DNA of 44,903 bases. Origin: a virus (lineage: Duplodnaviria > Heunggongvirae > Uroviricota > Caudoviricetes). Of this stretch, positions 25,142-43,512 are shown piece after piece. A program made the translations under genes and the position numbers. The notes beneath the pieces are model-generated. The model did no database searches. It saw only the letters and a program-made list of their open reading frames with translations, and was not told the DNA's origin. The number at the start of each line of letters is the position of its first letter. Within the stretch, counting starts at the first letter, position 1. The stretch lies in IMG/VR virus record IMGVR_UViG_2718217885_000015. One strand, 5' to 3'.

Positions 25142-25443
25142 ACCCCGTCTCCCGTTATCCGGAAGCTGACAACAATAAAAAAGCCACCCGTTAATTACTG
25201 ATGGCTCTGATGCATAAACGTCATCATTCCTGACCGTTATGATTGACAATGGTTATCATTTTTATATAAAAATACTCCCGATATGTGTTACATATCATTT
25301 CTCCACGGGGAATATCCCCACGCCAGCGTCAGACTCGTTTTCCCGTTCTCTTCTGTGCTGGCGTTTTTTTATTATGATGTCGGTGCATTTATTTCCAGCA
25401 CCAGGCTTTCAATCTCAACACCATACGCGGAATTTTTGGGCGT

Positions 25444-25469
25444 AAAAAATCCCCTCCGGTGAGGGGATT
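25444..25469 (-). terminator. Rho-independent terminator upstream of the holin (candidate tR')
   Basis: Stem AATCCCCTC/GAGGGGATT with a 4-nt loop; the A-run on the plus strand gives a U-run on the minus strand. Confidence 0.5.
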
Positions 25470-25701
25470 TGCTTATGTAAACATTTACACTGCTTACCTG
25501 CATGGTGCCGGGTGCCTCCCGGTGAATTCAGTATCAGCACCTGAATCCGCAATTATCCCATATACCTACTTGCTGATTGCCCCTCCGCACAGGGGGATTC
25601 ACCATGCGAAATTTTTTTAACAAATGCTCAGTCTGACAGGCAACTGTCAACTGACTGAATTGTGAGACAATTAAAATTTTCGGGGCGTAACTGATACCCG
25701 G

Positions 25702-26467: not shown

Positions 26468-26544
26468 TGGCGCGTTGTACTGGATTCGAACCAGTGACCG
26501 ATTGCTTAGAAGGCAATTGCTCTGTCCGACTGAGCTAACAACGC
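26468..26544 (-). tRNA. argO: tRNA-Arg (anticodon UCU)
   Basis: Folded by hand: acceptor GCGTTGT/ACAACGC, D-arm GCTC/GAGC, anticodon stem ATTGC/GCAAT with loop CTTCTAA, T-arm ACTGG-TTCGAAT-CCAGT, encoded CCA; 77 nt. Confidence 0.85.
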
Positions 26545-26557
26545 ATGATGCAGATAA

Positions 26558-26638
26558 TGGACCGCCATCGAGGACTCGAACCCCGCACCAACAACCCTGT
26601 TATCGTGTCGTCTGCTCTTCCTGATGAGCTAATGGCGG
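26558..26638 (-). tRNA. tRNA-like sequence with canonical acceptor, D- and T-arms but a non-canonical anticodon arm (possible pseudo-tRNA; argN-like position)
   Basis: Acceptor CCGCCAT/ATGGCGG, D-arm GCTC/GAGC, T-arm CGGGG-TTCGAGT-CCTCG and CCA are present, but the 27-nt region between D- and T-arms (GACGACACGATAACAGGGTTGTTGGTG) gave no standard 5-bp stem with 7-nt loop in my manual fold. Confidence 0.5.
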
Positions 26639-26645
26639 TATGTTA

Positions 26646-26721
26646 TGGTGGCCCTTGCTGGATTTGAACCAGCGACCTGGCGATTATGAGTCGCTCGCTC
26701 TCACCACTGAGCTAAAGGGCC
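26646..26721 (-). tRNA. ileZ: tRNA with anticodon CAU (Ile2/lysidine-type or Met; ileZ-like position)
   Basis: Acceptor GGCCCTT/AAGGGCC, anticodon loop CTCATAA, T-arm GCTGG-TTCAAAT-CCAGC, CCA encoded; 76 nt. Confidence 0.85.
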
Positions 26722-34649: not shown

Positions 34650-35249
34650 GGCAGCCTCCGTATGCAATGGATAACTTCCACCACCGGAAACGCCAATTTC
34701 GCTGGTGGTGAACTGAGCAGGGTTGGCGTAACCGGCGCATACGGAAACCGGCGCACCTTTCGGTGCCCCCACCCAGCCCACCATAATTTGGGTATAGCTG
34801 AGTTGTAGCAACAAAAAAGACGCTAACGCGCCAATTGTCGCCGTATGCAATTCCAGGACGCCAATCCCGGCACCCGCTTTATAAGGTGCCTGAACAGTGT
34901 AACGTCCCGGAATGGCAGAATCAATGTGCTGGTGGTCCTTCACACTCAACAAAATCACGCCTGAATTTCCACAAAGGGCTAAAGCACTCATGCGGGTAGT
35001 CTTTGCGAAGATAGATAACGCGCTGTGTTTCTGGCTCCCAACGAATAACATGAACATAAAGTCCTCTTCCGTCACGAAACCAGCGGTTAAGTTCCTGCAC
35101 AACTCGCCACCCACAGTCAGGTAAAGTTCTCTGTGGTTACTTACAGCCAGGAGATTTGGTAATCTGCATTCATGCCGTAACAACAGGTGTTCAGCGACCC
35201 TGACCACCAGCTGTTGCGACAAACGGTTATTTGCCGTTAAACTGTTCAT
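34650..35249 (-). CDS. Uncertain: upstream in-frame part of the 382-aa ORF (separate gene, N-terminal domain of a longer Rha protein, or non-coding)
   Basis: In-frame ORF continuing upstream of the Rha start; its ATG at 35249 overlaps the stop of the cII-like gene, which suggests coupling, but the sequence has no recognisable domain. Confidence 0.25.
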
Positions 35250-36131: not shown

Positions 36132-36806
36132 ATGAAAACAGTCCATGACATCCGGCGGTCTAACGCCAGAAAACTGAGAGATGGTGTTGGCGGGAATTCT
36201 TCCTTTGCCACCATGATTGATCGCGAACCAACCCAGACCAGCAGGTTTATGGGAGATGGTGCTACTAAAAATATCGGTGACAGCATGGCACGGCACATCG
36301 AAAAATGTTTCGACCTGCCTGTCGGATGGCTTGATCAAGAACACCAGACAACGAACATCACAAAAAAACCTGATGTTTCAATCACTAATAAACAAATAAC
36401 GCTAGTCCCTGTCATATCATGGGTACAGGCCGGAGCATGGAAAGAAGTTGGCTATTCTGAGGTTGATTTGAGCACAACAGAAACATATCCCTGCCCTGTA
36501 CCCTGTGGCGAAATGACTTATATATTGAGGGTGATTGGTGATTCAATGATTGATGAGTACCGTCCGGGGGACATGATTTTTGTCGATCCAGAAGTACCAG
36601 CCTGCCACGGCGATGACGTTATTGCATTGATGCACGATACAGGTGAAACCACCTTCAAAAGGTTGATAGAAGACGGGACACAGCGTTATCTCAAAGCATT
36701 AAACCCCAACTGGCCTGAGCCTTACATTAAGATAAACGGTAATTGCTCTATCATTGGTACAGTTATTTTCTCAGGAAAACCAAGAAGATACAAAATTAAA
36801 GCCTGA
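36132..36806 (+). CDS. cI: CI-type prophage repressor (N-terminal HTH, C-terminal S24 LexA-like autopeptidase)
   Basis: 224 aa; Ala-Gly cleavage site (VQAGAW), catalytic Ser (GDSM) and Lys (FKRL) of the S24 domain. Confidence 0.85.
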   Translation: MKTVHDIRRSNARKLRDGVGGNSSFATMIDREPTQTSRFMGDGATKNIGDSMARHIEKCFDLPVGWLDQEHQTTNITKKPDVSITNKQITLVPVISWVQAGAWKEVGYSEVDLSTTETYPCPVPCGEMTYILRVIGDSMIDEYRPGDMIFVDPEVPACHGDDVIALMHDTGETTFKRLIEDGTQRYLKALNPNWPEPYIKINGNCSIIGTVIFSGKPRRYKIKA

Positions 36807-36818
36807 TCAATGTCTATG

Positions 36819-36841
36819 AACCTGCTTCGGCAGGTTTTTTT
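36819..36841 (+). terminator. Rho-independent terminator after cI
   Basis: Stem AACCTGC/GCAGGTT with TTCG loop, followed by a T8 run. Confidence 0.7.
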
Positions 36842-36845
36842 ATAC

Positions 36846-36878
36846 TTGACAATGTACCATTAAGATACATAATGTACC
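36846..36878 (+). promoter_or_regulatory. Candidate early-left promoter (PL-like) overlapped by an operator-like repeat
   Basis: -35 TTGACA (36846-36851), 17-bp spacer, -10 ATAATG (36869-36874); spacer contains ATGTA-N9-TACAT and direct AATGTACC repeats related to the OR half-sites. Confidence 0.5.
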
Positions 36879-37001
36879 TGCATAAGATATCGAACAGGCA
36901 GGACGCCCACGAAGTAGCCGTCCGGGGCATACGAAGACCGGAATGATTCGTAAATAAAAAAGCGCCCAAGTGGACGCTTCACTTTTGAACTGGATTTATA
37001 A

Positions 37002-37244
37002 TCAATTATTTTCTTCATAAATGTTTTGTAATGTATTTATGAGATTTGGTATTTCTTTTATGGGAAAAGAATATATTGGACTTTCGATAATTTTATCAGA
37101 TTCAAATGGTGGTTGTTTGCAGGACAGTTGAACTATAACTGAATTATGATCTTTAACTGGCACACAGTACCAACCACATACATCAAAAACAGGAGTATTT
37201 TGATTATCCATTATGTCCTCGACAACTAAAAACACTGCGTACAA
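37002..37244 (-). CDS. Hypothetical protein (AT-rich moron antisense to the early-left transcript)
   Basis: 80-aa ORF in an AT-rich segment, followed on the minus strand by a hairpin plus U-run (about 36957-36990). Confidence 0.35.
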   Translation of the reverse strand: MYAVFLVVEDIMDNQNTPVFDVCGWYCVPVKDHNSVIVQLSCKQPPFESDKIIESPIYSFPIKEIPNLINTLQNIYEENN

Positions 37245-37872
37245 ACCTCAAAAGCAGGGAGTTATTTATAAAATTTCATAAAGAATAATTACTGATAGCG
37301 ACAATTCATTGTTCTTGAATTTTGAAAAATAGCAAGACAAAACAATGTAAACTTATTTAAGAAAACTTCTTATTATGTAAACAAAACAACCAATTCGTTA
37401 TATAGGAAAAACAAATAGTACGCAAGAAAATATTCAACAGGGGTATTACATTCAACCATAAGAGTAATCGTCTCTTTGGTAACTAATACCGAACATTTTA
37501 TTGTAACACGTCGTATGGCACATGCGTCGTTAGCGGTCTGGGGACGTTAAAGGGGACAATCCACTCCTTGCTCGGGCAAACAAACCAGGTAGCCGGAATG
37601 TGCAAGTCAATGATGATGCTGATAAGACGCCTAACCAGCGTGGCGATCCGGTTTGACGCCTGGGAAGAGACCAGGGTGCAACGATGAGGGCATTTATGGA
37701 GCCGCGACAAAGTGTGGTGCCGTAACTGGCTAAGTGCTCTCAGCGTTGTGGTAATCCGCGAAATGGCGCGGCGGTAAGTATGGCGGGGTTACTCTTTCCC
37801 CGTTGAGGACACCGGATTGTCAGGTTGACCATACGCCTGAGTGACAACCCCACCACAACAGCCACTGCTTTG

Positions 37873-37918
37873 GCGGTACCAGTTTGTACACTTGCTTCCG
37901 GCTGGTACCGCTCTTTTT
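37873..37918 (+). promoter_or_regulatory. Hairpin plus CGCTCTTTTTA: terminator and/or boxA-like antitermination element
   Basis: Perfect 10-bp inverted repeat GCGGTACCAG/CTGGTACCGC with a 19-nt loop, followed by TCTTTTT; the run resembles the boxA consensus CGCTCTT(T)A. Confidence 0.45.
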
Positions 37919-38007
37919 ACAAAACAGAGAAGAGCATCACCGGACGACGGGCTCATAACCCAATCCATCCGGGCGGCTGCCACCGCAGGTGTTCTTCTCT
38001 GTTTTGT
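37919..38007 (+). ncRNA. Large hairpin (14-bp arms ACAAAACAGAGAAG/CTTCTCTGTTTTGT) directly upstream of the first early-left gene; candidate boxB/put-like RNA element
   Basis: Perfect 14-bp inverted repeat at 37919-37932 and 37994-38007 with a GC-rich 61-nt spacer; no convincing ORF in the surrounding 550-bp GC-rich region. Confidence 0.35.
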
Positions 38008-38055
38008 GGAGAAACCAACCGACCTTGCAGGGTCGATATGATGAGGAGCAGCAAA

Positions 38056-38418
38056 ATGGCTAGCGAACGCAGTACTGATGTGCAGGCATTTATCGGGGAG
38101 CTGGACGGCGGCGTATTTGAAACCAAAATCGGCGCAGTTCTCAGTGAAGTCGCTTCCGGTGTGATGAACACGAAAACCAAAGGTAAGGTCTCACTCAACC
38201 TGGAAATCGAACCATTTGATGAGAACCGTGTGAAAATCAAACACAAACTCTCATATGTTCGCCCGACTAACCGCGGGAAAATTTCCGAAGAAGACACCAC
38301 CGAAACGCCGATGTATGTCAATCGCGGTGGTCGCCTGACTATTCTGCAGGAAGACCAGGGACAATTACTGACTCTTGCCGGTGAACCTGACGGAAAACTA
38401 CGCGCAGCAGGTCATTAA
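38056..38418 (+). CDS. YfdP-like prophage protein
   Basis: 120 aa from MASERSTDVQ, with a GAGGAG ribosome-binding site; the upstream in-frame extension in the ORF track is probably not translated. Family name recalled from E. coli CPS-53. Confidence 0.55.
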   Translation: MASERSTDVQAFIGELDGGVFETKIGAVLSEVASGVMNTKTKGKVSLNLEIEPFDENRVKIKHKLSYVRPTNRGKISEEDTTETPMYVNRGGRLTILQEDQGQLLTLAGEPDGKLRAAGH

Positions 38419-38483
38419 TATCGTTCTTAATTAACTGATTATTTATCTCATCACTGAATATCTTTATATAGTGAGGACTTATT

Positions 38484-39308
38484 ATGTCTCAGAACTTAGA
38501 CGCAACCGCAATTAATCAAATCCATGCCCTTATTTCTGCTCAGGGTGTTAATGAAATTATCAGTAAGATTGGTGCCGATGCTGTGGCATTGCCTGAGAAT
38601 TTCCGCATTCATGATCTGGAAAAATTTAATTTAAATCGCTTCCGTTTCCGTGGTGCGCTTTCCACTGCCAGCATCGATGACTTTACCCGTTATTCTAAAG
38701 ATCTTGCAGATGAAGGCACCCGCTGCTTTATCGATGCCGATAATATGCGTGCCGTCAGTGTGCTTAACCTGGGTACTATTGATGAACCAGGTCACGCAGA
38801 TAACACCGCCACTCTCAAACTGAAAAAGACAGCGCCGTTCTCTGCTCTGTTGTCTGTTAATGGCGAGCGTAACTCCCAGAAGTCACTGGCAGAATGGATT
38901 GAAGACTGGGCCGACTACCTTGTGGGCTTTGATGCTAATGGTGACGCCATTCAGGCAACAAAAGCAGCTGCGGCAGTCCGTAAAATCACAATTGAAGCAA
39001 ACCAGACCGCTGATTTTGAAGACAATGACTTCAGCGGCAAACGCTCTCTGATGGAGTCTGTCGAAGCGAAGACCAAAGACATTATGCCAGTGGCATTTGA
39101 ATTTAAATGCGTTCCGTTTGAAGGTCTGAAAGAACGTCCGTTTAAATTACGCCTCAGAATTATCACTGGCGATCGTCCTGTACTGGTTCTGCGCATTATT
39201 CAGCTGGAAGCGGTGCAGGAAGAAATGGCTAACGAATTTCGTGATCTGCTTGTTGAGAAATTCAAAGACAGCAAAGTAGAAACCTTTATTGGTACTTTCA
39301 CCGCCTGA
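38484..39308 (+). CDS. YfdQ-like prophage protein
   Basis: 274 aa with a GAGGA ribosome-binding site; same size and operon position as the CPS-53 YfdQ family, as recalled. Confidence 0.65.
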
Positions 39309-39435
39309 TTTCATTACTGCAAATGCCCCTGCGGGGGCATTTATGGAAACGTAATTAACTCAATAATCGCCTGAAGGCGAGGGTTTTCTTTAACCAAAAT
39401 TCAGAGCGGTGCAGCGCATATACGTGGAGAACAAA

Positions 39436-39972
39436 ATGTCATTTATTAAAACTTTTTCCGGGAAGCATTTTTATTATGACAAGATAAATAAAGACGACAT
39501 CGTGATTAACGATATCGCGGTTTCCCTTTCAAATATCTGCCGCTTTGCCGGTCATCTTTCTCACTTCTACAGTGTCGCCCAACATGCGGTGCTTTGCAGC
39601 CAGCTGGTGCCGCAGGAATTTGCTTTTGAAGCGTTAATGCATGATGCAACAGAAGCGTATTGCCAGGACATTCCCGCACCACTGAAACGCCTTCTTCCTG
39701 ACTATAAACGGATGGAAGAAAAAATAGACGCCGTAATCCGTGAGAAATACGGGTTACCCCCAGTTATGAGTACACCCGTGAAATATGCCGATCTCATCAT
39801 GCTGGCAACCGAACGCCGCGATCTCGGGCTTGATGATGGCTCTTTCTGGCCTGTACTGGAAGGCATCCCGGCAACAGAGATGTTCAACGTGATTCCACTG
39901 GCACCGGGCCATGCCTACGGGATGTTTATGGAACGCTTCAACGAGTTATCGGAATTACGCAAATGTGCATAA
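39436..39972 (+). CDS. HD-domain phosphohydrolase (YfdR-like 5'-deoxynucleotidase)
   Basis: 178 aa from MSFIKTF (GGAGA ribosome-binding site); HD-type metal-binding residues (H...HD...D) in FAGHLSHFYSVAQHAVLCS...MHDATEAY. Confidence 0.7.
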   Translation: MSFIKTFSGKHFYYDKINKDDIVINDIAVSLSNICRFAGHLSHFYSVAQHAVLCSQLVPQEFAFEALMHDATEAYCQDIPAPLKRLLPDYKRMEEKIDAVIREKYGLPPVMSTPVKYADLIMLATERRDLGLDDGSFWPVLEGIPATEMFNVIPLAPGHAYGMFMERFNELSELRKCA

Positions 39973-40841
39973 CTCATGTAGTTAGTTTTTCTGGCGGGAG
40001 AACATCCGCATATCTTGTTCACCTGATGGAAGAACAAAGAAAGGCTGGCAATAACGTCTGCTACATCTTTATGGATACCGGTTGCGAACATCCGCTGACA
40101 TACCGCTTTATCCGGGAGGTTGTGAAGTTCTGGGACATACCACTAACTGTGTTACAGGTCGATATAAATCCTGAGCTTGGGCAGCCAAATGGTTATACAG
40201 AATGGGAGCCAAAGGATATTCAGACACGAATGCCGGTGCTTAAACCGTTTATGGACATGGTTAAAAAGTACGGTACGCCATACATCGGCGGCGCGTTCTG
40301 TACTGACAGGCTAAAACTCATCCCTTTCACGAAATACTGCGATAACCATTTCGGGCGAGGTAATTACATCACATGGCTGGGTATTCGTGCAGACGAACCC
40401 CGTAGGCTGAAACCGAAATCGGGCGTCCGGTATCTTGCCGAGCTGTCAGATTTTGATAAGTCGGATGTTATCCGGTGGTGGCGAAAACAACCTTTTGATT
40501 TGCAAATCCCGGAGCATCTCGGGAACTGTGTTTTCTGCATCAAAAAGTCAACGCAAAAGCTGGGGCTTGCATGTAAAGACGAACCAGGTCTGATGCGAGT
40601 TTTTAATGAGCTGGTTACAGGCAAACACGTCAGGGATGGTCATCGCAGAACAGGTAAAGACATTATGTACCGTGGTCACCTGACGCTTGACGGAATTGCC
40701 AGAATGTCTGCCAACAGCGACTACAGAAATTTGTATCAGGCGATGGTACAGGACAGGCGATTCGATACCGGCTCGTGTTCAGAGTCATGTGAAATCTGGG
40801 GTGATCAATTGGAATTGGAATTCGAAGAGGTAGGGGTATGA
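39963..40841 (+). CDS. PAPS-reductase-family (PP-loop ATP pyrophosphatase) protein
   Basis: 292 aa; N-terminal PP-loop VSFSGGRTS; C-terminal Cys cluster (CVFCIKKS...CSESC); translationally coupled to the next ORF (ATGA overlap). Confidence 0.75.
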   Translation: MCITHVVSFSGGRTSAYLVHLMEEQRKAGNNVCYIFMDTGCEHPLTYRFIREVVKFWDIPLTVLQVDINPELGQPNGYTEWEPKDIQTRMPVLKPFMDMVKKYGTPYIGGAFCTDRLKLIPFTKYCDNHFGRGNYITWLGIRADEPRRLKPKSGVRYLAELSDFDKSDVIRWWRKQPFDLQIPEHLGNCVFCIKKSTQKLGLACKDEPGLMRVFNELVTGKHVRDGHRRTGKDIMYRGHLTLDGIARMSANSDYRNLYQAMVQDRRFDTGSCSESCEIWGDQLELEFEEVGV

Positions 40842-41185
40842 CAACCGAAATTAACTACCATGCACTGCTTGAGCGCGCACGGAATAAAGTGCAGAGCATT
40901 GAGTTCGCCTTAACACAGAGTGCATTCGCTGAGATTCGCGCTGAGCTTGAAAATGATTTAGAACTGGCACGGATTGCACTGGCATCTCTGGAAGTTGAGC
41001 CAGATGAACGCGCAGCCTATGAATTATTTATGGAAAAGCGTTTCGGTAAAACAGTCGATCGTCGGAGAGCAAAAAACGGTGATAACGAGTACATGGCGTG
41101 GGATATGGCTCTCGGCTGGGTCGTCTGGCAACAACGCGCTGGCATGAGTCTTTCAACTGCACAACCACAGGAGGGTCAACAATGA
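40838..41185 (+). CDS. Hypothetical early-left protein
   Basis: 115-aa ORF coupled to the upstream gene; no recognised domain. Confidence 0.5.
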   Translation: MTTEINYHALLERARNKVQSIEFALTQSAFAEIRAELENDLELARIALASLEVEPDERAAYELFMEKRFGKTVDRRRAKNGDNEYMAWDMALGWVVWQQRAGMSLSTAQPQEGQQ

Positions 41186-41376
41186 ACAACTTAATGACAA
41201 CAAAACAAGTCGCCGAATTCTGTGGCGTTTCAATATCGACGGTGCTTCGCTGGAACAGCGTAAACCGGAGAACTGGCCAGAAGTACAGGCCTGATTTTCC
41301 AGATCCTGATATTAAATCATGCCCAAATAAATGGGCGTCACGCAAGATTTACAGGTTTGCAGGAGTTATTGAATGA
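41182..41376 (+). CDS. AlpA/Xis-type excisionase or regulator (HTH)
   Basis: 64 aa from MNNLMTTKQVAEFCGVSISTVLRW, with an AGGAGG ribosome-binding site; typical partner of P4-type integrases. Confidence 0.7.
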   Translation: MNNLMTTKQVAEFCGVSISTVLRWNSVNRRTGQKYRPDFPDPDIKSCPNKWASRKIYRFAGVIE

Positions 41377-41720
41377 CGTATGTGAACAGACACGTCTATG
41401 GCACGGTAAGCGTCTGTCTGAGCGATACAGGCACGGACGTTGCTATCCACAAGCATTAATTATCAGGAAACGGGGACCGCTCCCCAAGCATGATGTATTG
41501 AAACGAAGACATTTACACAATGATAGAAAAAATACTAAAATAATGATTCAACTCAAAGAGTTGATGTACATAAAATGCCTCACCAGCCTAGGTGAACATT
41601 TTCATGGGTGGGGAAAAACATGATGTGGACCACACTTCCCCCTCTAAAAAGAGGGGAAAGAGTATGGTTTTGTTGTACACTAAAGGCCATATGGTTTTTT
41701 ATTATGTTTGGATAAGATAA

Positions 41721-41906
41721 ATGAATGTAATAGCATTTGATGAAATAGAATCTAGCATAGCCGCCAATGATCAGGTTGATTCTATCTGCATTGAATTAAC
41801 AACATTTAATCAAGATAATGTCATTTCATTTGAAAGTAAAAAGAAAAATAAAGAAATTCTTGATGCATTTTTTGAAATAATAAATACTGATATAGTTTTC
41901 GACTAG
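41721..41906 (+). CDS. Small acidic ORF upstream of the deaminase gene (may instead be part of a non-coding RNA)
   Basis: 61-aa ORF, AT-rich, weak ribosome-binding site, 10 nt upstream of the 531-aa gene; a 7-bp hairpin CCCCTCT/AGAGGGG lies at 41639-41656 upstream. Confidence 0.3.
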   Translation: MNVIAFDEIESSIAANDQVDSICIELTTFNQDNVISFESKKKNKEILDAFFEIINTDIVFD

Positions 41907-41916
41907 GTAATTAGCA

Positions 41917-43512
41917 ATGGCTGAAGCAGCAAAAAAAACTCCACAAAAGCTGAATGAAAAAAAAGGCTCAACATCGGCATCATCACTTGAGATTGTGAAT
42001 TCACGACAATCAAAAGATATTTATCTTGGATTGTGTGGATATGTTGGATGTGGCATGAGAACGATAAACAAAATTATCGAAGAGATATCCAAAGAATGGG
42101 GGTATAATGTTGTACACATCCGCATAAGTGCGCTTATGGAAAACCCATTATATTTTGAGCCAGCAGCACTGAAGGTATCCGAAAGCACACAAGTTAATAG
42201 ACATTTAAAACTCCAGGATATTGCCAATAAACTTCGTAAACATTACAAAAAAAATGAGTTGCTTGCAGAAGCTGCTATTGCAGCAATCGCAGCAGAGAAA
42301 AATAATATTGATTATAATAATGATGAATATAAAGGTACTGTCTTCATCATTGATCAATTCAAAAGGCCGGAAGAAATAGAGTTATTCAGAGTTATATATC
42401 AGCATAATTTCTATTTGTTAGGAGTTTTGCGCGATTTAGATTACCGAATTCCGAATCTCATTGATGACGAATCGACAAAGAACGACCTTCATTTAATTAT
42501 CAATATTGATAATAAATCCTCTGATCCGTATGGACAAAGAACCGGGGAGACCATTCTTGATTCAGATTTTTTTATTAAAAATAACTTCAGCCAAAAAAGT
42601 GAATTAAAGAAGAAGATTGATCGGTTTTTCGGTCTTATTCATGGCAAAAATGGTTTAACACCAACTTTTAACGAGAAAGGTATGTATGCTGCCTTTTCAA
42701 CATCATTACAATCAGCTTGTTTATCACGTCAAGTAGGGGCTGCACTGTTTGATGATGAAGGGAATTTGCTTGCCGTGGGTAAGAACGACGTACCTAAAGC
42801 TGGTGGCGGGTTGTATAGCAGTGATGATTTTGATAACGATCATCGATGCGTTCACAAAAGTGGTAAGTGTTATAATGATGCAAACAAGCTAAAAATTAAA
42901 GACCGTATAAAAAGCATATTATCAACCGAAGTAAGAACTGTATTAGGTATTTCCGCAGGACAAACTGTTGCCGATATTAATATAACACGACTTCTAAACA
43001 AATTAGATAATATTGCAGAAGGCATTTACAAAGACAGCAAAATATCAAGTGTAATGGAGTACTCCAGATCAATTCATGCTGAAATGGACGTCATTACATC
43101 AATGGCTAGAAAACAAAACGGCGATACTAAAGATAAAATTCTTTTTACGACAACCTATCCCTGCCACAACTGTGCAAGGCATATTGTCGCAGCTGGAATA
43201 AAAAAAGTAGTATATATAGAGCCATTTGATAAAAGCCTTGCTCTTGATCTGCATAATGATGCAATAACAAAGAACGAAGAATCTTCCAAAGTAATATTTT
43301 GTGATTTTGAGGGGGTATCACCCCGCCGCTACCATAAATTTTTTAGACCAACGGATGAACGTAAAGATGATAAAACAGGGGCTGCAAATAAATTTAATGC
43401 TCGCTACAAAAATCATATAGATGTTCAATATCTTGATGATTATAGAAAGTATGAGACTGTTGTAGCTAAGAAATTTATAAACGAGATTGCTAAACCAGAG
43501 TCTCAGCCATAA
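41917..43512 (+). CDS. Two-domain deoxycytidylate/dCTP deaminase-like protein (AvcD/DcdV-like): N-terminal kinase-like region plus C-terminal CMP/dCMP deaminase domain
   Basis: 531 aa; C-terminal zinc-binding deaminase signature HAEMDVI...(26 aa)...PCHNCARHIVAAGIKKVVYIEP, preceded by ACLSRQVGAALFDDEGNLLAVGKND; N-terminal glycine-rich GLCGYVGCGMRT and Walker-B-like VFIIDQF; markedly AT-rich against the flanking phage DNA. Confidence 0.7.
   Translation: MAEAAKKTPQKLNEKKGSTSASSLEIVNSRQSKDIYLGLCGYVGCGMRTINKIIEEISKEWGYNVVHIRISALMENPLYFEPAALKVSESTQVNRHLKLQDIANKLRKHYKKNELLAEAAIAAIAAEKNNIDYNNDEYKGTVFIIDQFKRPEEIELFRVIYQHNFYLLGVLRDLDYRIPNLIDDESTKNDLHLIINIDNKSSDPYGQRTGETILDSDFFIKNNFSQKSELKKKIDRFFGLIHGKNGLTPTFNEKGMYAAFSTSLQSACLSRQVGAALFDDEGNLLAVGKNDVPKAGGGLYSSDDFDNDHRCVHKSGKCYNDANKLKIKDRIKSILSTEVRTVLGISAGQTVADINITRLLNKLDNIAEGIYKDSKISSVMEYSRSIHAEMDVITSMARKQNGDTKDKILFTTTYPCHNCARHIVAAGIKKVVYIEPFDKSLALDLHNDAITKNEESSKVIFCDFEGVSPRRYHKFFRPTDERKDDKTGAANKFNARYKNHIDVQYLDDYRKYETVVAKKFINEIAKPESQP

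Follow-up and report, generated by a model that had tools for sequence, protein, structure and literature searches.

Probable independent cassettes in the early-left region of a lambdoid prophage: a yfd gene cluster, a NinC-type PP-loop gene and a structured RNA

In the early-left region of a tailed-phage genome, IMG/VR virus record IMGVR_UViG_2718217885_000015, the gene for an HD-domain phosphohydrolase overlaps that for a PP-loop protein of the 3′-phosphoadenosine 5′-phosphosulfate (PAPS) reductase family, which raises the question whether the two enzymes form one module for nucleotide metabolism or anti-defence or are neighbours of separate origin. The window, by which we mean this whole stretch of 44,903 nucleotides (nt), is a lambdoid prophage; a 3.6-kb query taken from it (37800–41400) is 100% identical to a stretch of the Escherichia coli 09-00049 chromosome, where the prophage adjoins yjjG–rimI–holD. 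A sequence-only reading had described five open reading frames (ORFs) here, namely YfdP- and YfdQ-like proteins, an HD protein, a PP-loop PAPS_reduct protein with a C-terminal cysteine cluster and a coupled protein of 115 amino acids (aa). All five were confirmed at their coordinates on the + strand, each with a strong family or sequence match: yfdP (38056–38418, 120 aa; phrog_204, E = 1e-49; PGAP name 'protein YfdP'), yfdQ (38484–39308, 274 aa; DUF2303, Pfam 310 bits), yfdR (39436–39972, 178 aa; PGAP name yfdR; an HD-domain phosphohydrolase annotated as 5′-deoxynucleotidase; phrog_318, E = 2e-111), a ninC-type gene with a PAPS_reduct domain (39963–40841, 292 aa; Pfam 35.3 bits), which is the orthologue of lambda ninC, and a YfdT-like ORF (40838–41185, 115 aa; phrog_660). 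Hundreds of genomes have annotations for the region, and none of its genes is new, being near-identical to K-12 or lambda genes and common in E. coli. The explanation that we favour, with confidence a little better than even, is that the region supplies the accessory genes of the early-left (PL) transcription unit and is built of independent cassettes.

The genomic context of NinC was compared across 80 viral contigs encoding relatives with 38–99% identity, in which the other proteins of the window were sought within 6 kb. YfdR adjoins NinC in ten loci only, all with a NinC at least 93% identical. It is adjacent in 0 of the 66 more distant loci and absent within 6 kb in 65 of them; one locus (L056) carries a YfdR homologue of 54% identity ~5 kb from NinC and on the opposite strand. 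Elsewhere NinC is found in a nin region (O–DnaB–NinB–NinC–NinF–NinG–Q) or behind RecT and a YqaJ exonuclease, and clustering of the ORFs within 3.5 kb gave no conserved partner, no neighbour being shared between contexts. Lambda encodes NinC without YfdR and K-12 encodes YfdR without NinC, while yfdPQR without NinC is also present in the cdtI, Ayreon and Shiga toxin (Stx) 2c phages. No phage record covers at least 80% of the 3.6-kb query, and many matches end at the end of yfdR. Among 5426 complete E. coli genomes, 3132 match part of the query, 428 have this NinC allele group and 271 have the whole arrangement; the NinC occurrences include 72 places on plasmids, P1-like ones among them. DNA homology to K-12 runs over 38037–39970, to the end of yfdR, and begins again at 40973, inside yfdT, so that NinC sits exactly in the slot of K-12 yfdS (DUF551). 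Since adjacency to YfdR is confined to NinC proteins at least 93% identical, a coupled nucleotide-modification pathway is not supported. The context comparison thus found no conserved HD–NinC linkage and lends no support to a single module, and the HD-plus-PP-loop pairing should not be taken for a pathway. The yfdR/ninC junction is of recent mosaic origin and coincides with a gene boundary, a pattern common among lambdoid phages.

The first cassette, yfdPQR with the YfdT-like ORF, closely resembles that of K-12 CPS-53, with protein identities of 99.2% for YfdP, 98.9% for YfdQ and 99.4% for YfdR (178/178 residues), and 72% over 79 aa between the 115-aa ORF and YfdT. The function of the HD protein had been called not evident, but the protein is almost the same as K-12 YfdR, a published DnaA-binding protein. 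In K-12, multicopy yfdQ and yfdR together with yfdS or yfdT suppress over-initiation and inhibit initiation at oriC, yfdQ being needed along with yfdR for the inhibition (Noguchi and Katayama 2016, PMC4776307). Purified K-12 YfdR binds domain I of DnaA in a Phe46-dependent manner and moderately inhibits the DnaA–DiaA and DnaA–DnaB contacts; it has a much lower nucleotide affinity and a weak deoxynucleoside monophosphate (dNMP) phosphatase affinity (PMC4776307). YfdR of the window retains the H..HD..D metal-binding motif (AQH, MHDATE and CQD, aligned to PDB 2gz4, Atu1052, E = 1e-13) and misses the cut-offs of the YfbR profiles (Pfam PF12917, 24.2 versus 25.9 bits; NCBIfam equivalog NF003009, 19.8 versus 122), which is consistent with the reported low nucleotide affinity. 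On these scores it is related to YfbR without being its orthologue, and its HD site would have at most weak dNMP phosphatase activity. YfdQ matches PDB 9o7m ('YfdQ protein', 36 chains; E = 5e-44), while its structure model gave no informative fold match, and no PDB relatives of YfdP or the 115-aa ORF were found by sequence.

As the window holds the minimal published set (Q, R and T-like), take-over of host replication is the best-supported role for this cassette. Most likely it would act at the replication step of host take-over, with YfdR binding DnaA domain I and, together with YfdQ and YfdS or YfdT, damping oriC initiation when abundant. This assignment draws on overexpression data, and it counts against it that the replication effect of YfdQRT was seen on overexpression only and that the K-12 deletion has no phenotype (PMC4776307). 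According to a survey of lambdoid phages, many early-left operons have the yfd cluster, and its presence does not depend on a recombination module (PMC12315714).

Family comparison of the 115-aa ORF shows a mosaic N-terminus and no DUF551 domain. Its start, MTTxINYxAL, is typical of the hypervariable genes, of the Ead/Ea22 and DUF551 kinds, that lie after NinC in related phages. On the identical E. coli sequence PGAP leaves this ORF uncalled and annotates in its frame only a pseudogene, a partial 'DNA-binding protein', because the ORF has an Ead/Ea22-type N-terminus and no DUF551. In relatives there is a chimeric ORF in which DUF551 and PAPS_reduct domains are combined (P0021, 294 aa), and long read-through ORFs span the Ead/Ea22-type genes downstream of NinC (for example, L016 3520–4632). 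Such chimeric and read-through ORFs show active recombination in the region.

The second cassette is the ninC-type gene. Its product is 79% identical to lambda NinC (290 aa) over 285 residues, matches phrog_424 and phrog_33262 (E = 8.5e-91 and 1.6e-90) and has counterparts in Stx phages that are annotated NinC. A homology search returned 5045 proteins at E ≤ 0.001. In an alignment of 40 family sequences with 51–94% identity, S8, S10-G11-G12-R13, S15, D38-T39-G40, C113, K118 and C126 are invariant, as are C189/C192 of a CxxC pair and C272/C276 of SCSESCE, giving six invariant cysteines in all. The corresponding motifs are the SxSGGRxS PP-loop, DTGxE, WxGxRxDExxR, GNCxFCxKK and the C-terminal SCSESCE. 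Conservation of the PP-loop and the cysteines is therefore not a matter of chance. The AlphaFold2 (AF2) model has a predicted local distance difference test (pLDDT) score of 87, and its last 26 residues (267–292), which include SCSESCE, are disordered. An iron–sulfur (Fe-S) or cysteine centre is probable, together with a mobile cysteine-bearing tail; Fe-S binding and ATP pyrophosphatase chemistry are predictions.

To which chemistry such a protein might be put is suggested by its relatives. Profile searches against defence families with PADLOC gave SspD as the best match of the window protein (E = 1.3e-14, residues 5–152), then BrxP and then DndC (E ~5e-3); across the 40 aligned sequences, SspD (best E = 4e-20) and BrxP are matched by every member and DndC by 20. 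Residues 3–282 are 55% identical (E = 7e-109) to the PAPS domain of p0018 of Vibrio phage 44E38.1. Transfer of p0018 and the adjacent p0019 into a sensitive vibriophage led to growth on a Dnd-positive host (Piel et al. 2022, preprint 10.1101/2021.05.05.442762), the recombinant reaching 1e11 plaque-forming units (PFU)/ml on a Dnd-positive, retron-deleted host (Piel et al. 2022), and a 2026 survey cites this result in support of a contribution of phage PAPS reductases to the evasion of Dnd. Natural fusions of NinC with a Dam DNA methyltransferase occur in the family (P0081 and P0097) and argue for a DNA-directed role. Two further candidates were rejected: p0019 is a DUF6475 protein unrelated to YfdR, rather than an HD protein, and JSS1_004 of Salmonella phage JSS1, considered as a phage anti-Dnd PAPS reductase, is a T7 gp0.7-like kinase.

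Our best guess for this NinC, and a plausible one by homology, is a role against phosphorothioate-dependent defence. The anti-defence part of the sequence-only reading thus survives for NinC, through its homology to p0018 and its SspD, BrxP and DndC profile matches, and is lost for the HD and PP-loop proteins as a joint module. NinC would be a mobile single-gene PP-loop enzyme related to SspD, BrxP and DndC whose target is DNA or the machinery with which the host makes phosphorothioates (IscS/Dnd/Ssp), and by this means incoming phage DNA would escape phosphorothioate-dependent restriction. In a more specific form, which we put forward tentatively, NinC-type proteins including that of lambda may work on their own, either using IscS-derived sulfur and ATP to set phosphorothioate, or a similar sulfur mark, on phage DNA or poisoning the Dnd/Ssp/BREX-4 machinery. 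If this were true, phosphorothioate-based immunity in Enterobacteriaceae and Vibrio would face a widespread counter-defence consisting of one gene, ninC.

Several points weigh against this role. The SspD match covers the N-terminal half only (profile positions 2–125 of 277), and the PADLOC models detect no Dnd/Ssp partner (DndA/IscS, DndD, DndE, SspA, SspB or SspC) among the neighbouring ORFs. The PP-loop of NinC has T at the position of D in the canonical SGGxDS, and the nin region is not required under laboratory conditions. The vibriophage phenotype belongs to a two-gene insert and a Dam-fused protein, so that the PAPS domain by itself may be insufficient, and in one study vibriophages with the gene infect Dnd-positive and Dnd-negative hosts alike.

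Structural comparison of NinC bears on two alternatives. In Foldseek searches with the NinC model, CysH and adenosine 5′-phosphosulfate (APS) reductases are the best matches (E = 2e-5 to 1e-4), with template modelling (TM) scores of 0.35–0.39 normalised to the query and 0.44–0.50 normalised to the target, followed by the ATP sulfurylase CysD, LarE, TtuA, NcsA, MnmA, and GMP and NAD synthetases. One alternative, which we consider unlikely, is that NinC serves phage recombination or replication, or thiolates RNA or a cofactor in the manner of TtuA or LarE, and has no part in defence evasion. The order O–DnaB–NinB–NinC–NinF–NinG in many loci, with lambda-like NinC between NinB (Orf) and NinG (Rap), fits recombination or replication, but the gene is also found in the early-left operon and on P1-like plasmids without NinB or NinG. 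Thiolation would agree with the fold likeness to LarE, TtuA, NcsA and MnmA (Foldseek E ~1e-3); however, these matches are weaker than those to PAPS/APS reductases, and NinC has no recognisable tRNA-binding domain.

Less probable still is that NinC is an auxiliary metabolic gene, a CysH-type PAPS reductase raising the supply of sulfite or cysteine during infection. This is its usual database name, some papers argue for a role in sulfur assimilation, and the top structural matches and the Pfam PAPS_reduct match (35.3 bits against a cut-off of 22.5) point the same way. However, the Pfam match covers residues 5–71 only, and hhalign and PDB profile searches confine the alignment of NinC with CysH to the N-terminal 65–100 residues; as nothing beyond these residues aligns, a correspondence of Fe-S ligands between the two could not be established. 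NinC scores 20.5 bits with the NCBIfam equivalog NF002537, the cut-off being 154, and the profiles of SspD and BrxP fit it better than that of CysH. At the aligned loop it reads SFSGGRTS where CysH has SSSFGIQA, and it ends in SCSESCE rather than in ECGLH, the catalytic motif of CysH. Furthermore, the E. coli host already has cysH–cysIJ, and some phages carry fusions to a Dam DNA methylase. On this comparison we take NinC not to be a CysH-type reductase.

Least credible, and in our judgement very improbable, is that a single two-step pathway, made up of HD nucleotidase and PP-loop enzyme, produces a modified nucleotide or modifies phage DNA: the 10-bp yfdR/ninC overlap within one coupled chain, the recurrence of the arrangement in 271 complete genomes and a looser YfdP–DUF2303–X–NinC order in Stx-type phages such as Ss-VASD could be read in its favour, but the X-position gene of Ss-VASD has no HD match, adjacency is restricted to the closest NinC lineage and seen in none of the 66 distant loci, lambda and vibriophage NinC have other neighbours, and yfdPQR precedes other genes in K-12, cdtI and most phage records.

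The explanation by independent cassettes places these genes in an early-left unit whose probable start lies well upstream. A cI-like repressor gene of the LexA type (36132–36806) lies upstream of the early-left features and is followed by a terminator-like hairpin (36818–36837), and directly 3′ of this terminator a consensus scan found a candidate PL-like promoter, a strong site of sigma-70 type, on the + strand (36846–36873; TTGACA-16-CATAAT, with 11/12 matches to the consensus, on which the call is based). This site points into a convergent ORF of 69–80 aa on the minus strand (37002–37244; PGAP call, 37002–37211), which has its own terminator (36980–36959), gave no family match in Pfam and PHROG profile searches, and has a position analogous to that of the lysogeny-expressed genes beside cI in lambda. 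From this ORF to yfdP there are ~800 bp without a convincing ORF. The sequence-only reading made these the first genes expressed from PL; yfdP does not lie immediately behind the PL-like site but ~1.2 kb further on, the interval holding the minus-strand ORF and the structured RNA described below, and a single transcript (operon) from PL is what the gene layout suggests. No N-like gene was seen in the prophage between the PL-like promoter and yfdP.

At the other end, the chain runs into xis (41182–41376, + strand), an excisionase gene (phrog_1553, E = 2e-35; weak HTH_17/MerR matches) in a position homologous to that of the excisionase gp34 of cdtI. The overlaps, as read from the sequence, are 10 bp between yfdR and ninC and ATGA both between ninC and the 115-aa ORF and between this ORF and xis; by this layout yfdR, ninC, the 115-aa ORF and xis form a same-strand, translationally coupled chain that xis closes. 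No recombination module of the Red, RecT or Erf kind is present in the early-left operon (36807–41376). The whole window has 16 Chi sites (GCTGGTGG); the minus strand, which carries the cro-side early genes (PGAP) and, presumably, the late genes, accounts for 11. The Chi count and the missing recombination module fit a group of lambdoid phages described as the 'no Rec module, Chi-rich' class (PMC12315714).

The interval before yfdP contains an element that is perhaps more interesting than the gene pairing itself, an unannotated structured RNA of ~190–195 nt on the + strand (37506–37700; covariance model R1, 152 bits, E = 3e-43). The 560 bp before yfdP (37501–38055) are 99% conserved in the cdtI, Ayreon and Stx2c phages, with a folding z of −4.9. 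Within them the RNA is a separate element, one that is widespread in phages of Enterobacterales. Outside lambdoid early-left leaders its copies are 76–89% identical; P1/P7-like phages have it between a tRNA and ban, and Uetakeviruses just 5′ of tRNA-Arg. Copies were located at L089 1501–1684 (P7), L088 1501–1745 and L090 1201–1315, and in L091–L095 and L096–L215. At least 120 viral contigs contain an invariant 19-mer of the RNA, as do 27 species-representative genomes, mostly of Enterobacterales, five of the genomes being contigs of metagenome-assembled genomes labelled Bacillota, Oscillospiraceae or Flavobacteriales. Among the matches listed, a same-strand tRNA directly adjoins the RNA in 41 of 120 viral loci.

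For the structure, 32 representatives of 37 sequence clusters were aligned and a fold was proposed by hand. It consists of a hairpin, a long-range helix round a variable insert, a hairpin with a GAAGAGA loop, and a 4-bp stem capped by a conserved YUCACCA loop, for which downstream pairing is possible (a candidate pseudoknot). In the alignment 96.7% of the cells are paired, compared with 27–50% in register-shifted controls, and covariation is strong, both partners changing in 11 of the 29 pairs (74 cells), a level which none of 500 shuffles reaches; invariant G–U pairs assign the RNA to the + strand. Neither this RNA nor three further phage copies match Rfam 15 at E up to 1, and a sequence-string search of the literature returned nothing relevant. 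An identity with HK022 put was rejected, as model R1 gives no match in HK022, and a search of the yfdP leader for a hidden tRNA found none. A stable RNA that is processed along with tRNAs is one possible identity of the element; a leader or antitermination element acting in cis is another. SfIV, Kati and ST64B-type phages carry the rest of the leader (37700–38055, + strand) as a segment of its own, which has two long perfect hairpins just before the start of yfdP, the first with a 13-bp stem (GGCGGUACCAG.../...CUGGUACCGC) and the second with a stem of ~25 bp built on ACAAAACAGAGAAGAGCA / UGUUCUUCUCUGUUUUGU.

Beyond xis, an AT-rich insert (35–40% GC) between xis and int holds the gene for an AvcD-like anti-phage deoxycytidine triphosphate (dCTP) deaminase of 531 aa (41917–43512, + strand). 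Its product has a P-loop N-terminal part and a deoxycytidine monophosphate (dCMP) deaminase domain, and it scores 464.5 bits with the NCBIfam equivalog NF041025 (cut-off 400) and matches PADLOC dCTPase with E = 4e-164; by these matches it is a prophage-borne defence gene. It is preceded by a 61-aa ORF (41721–41906, + strand; phrog_9966), which always accompanies the dCTP deaminase in PHROGs. RNA genes elsewhere in the prophage, all on the minus strand, are STnc100 RNA (25438–25636; 148.7 bits), a C4 antisense RNA (34701–34788; 80.7 bits) immediately adjoining isrK RNA (34813–34889; 61.2 bits), and two tRNAs, Arg-tct and Met-cat (26468–26721).

Finally, we compared the region with the systems that it most resembles. 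K-12 CPS-53 (KpLE1) carries yfdP-Q-R-S-T in the same order and with the same spacing, including a 10-bp overlap at the end of yfdR, and in both the YfdT homologue follows and xis lies downstream. In contrast, the window lacks yfdS and has the ninC gene instead, the N-terminal 35–45 residues of its YfdT-like ORF are unlike those of K-12 YfdT, and K-12 does not have the conserved leader of 560 bp that contains the structured RNA, its homology beginning only 19 bp before yfdP. With CysH and APS reductase, NinC shares the overall fold and the DTG motif, and it differs from CysH in a near-canonical PP-loop, another C-terminal cysteine motif and extra inserts. DndC, SspD and BrxP are the PP-loop sulfur-inserting subunits of DNA phosphorothioation, and the cysteine-rich NinC has in common with them the N-terminal PP-loop half. 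Unlike these systems, NinC has no adjacent cysteine desulfurase, ATPase or DNA-recognition subunit, and it is far shorter than DndC (profiles of 468–481 positions) or BrxP (779). The p0018 proteins of vibriophages 44E38.1 and 41E34.2, which are PAPS-reductase–Dam fusions, share with NinC the PP-loop, CxxC and SCSESCE, whereas NinC ends after the PAPS domain and so is without the C-terminal Dam domain, no DUF6475 neighbour matching p0019 is present in the window, and the host genus differs. Lambda NinC is of similar length and has every motif residue of the window protein, although lambda ninC lies in the early-right (PR) operon between ninB and ninD, and ninC of the window lies in the PL operon, flanked by yfdR and the yfdT-like ORF. 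Lambda NinC, a classic unexplained gene, is closely homologous to the one phage 'PAPS reductase' for which a phenotype of defence evasion has been reported.

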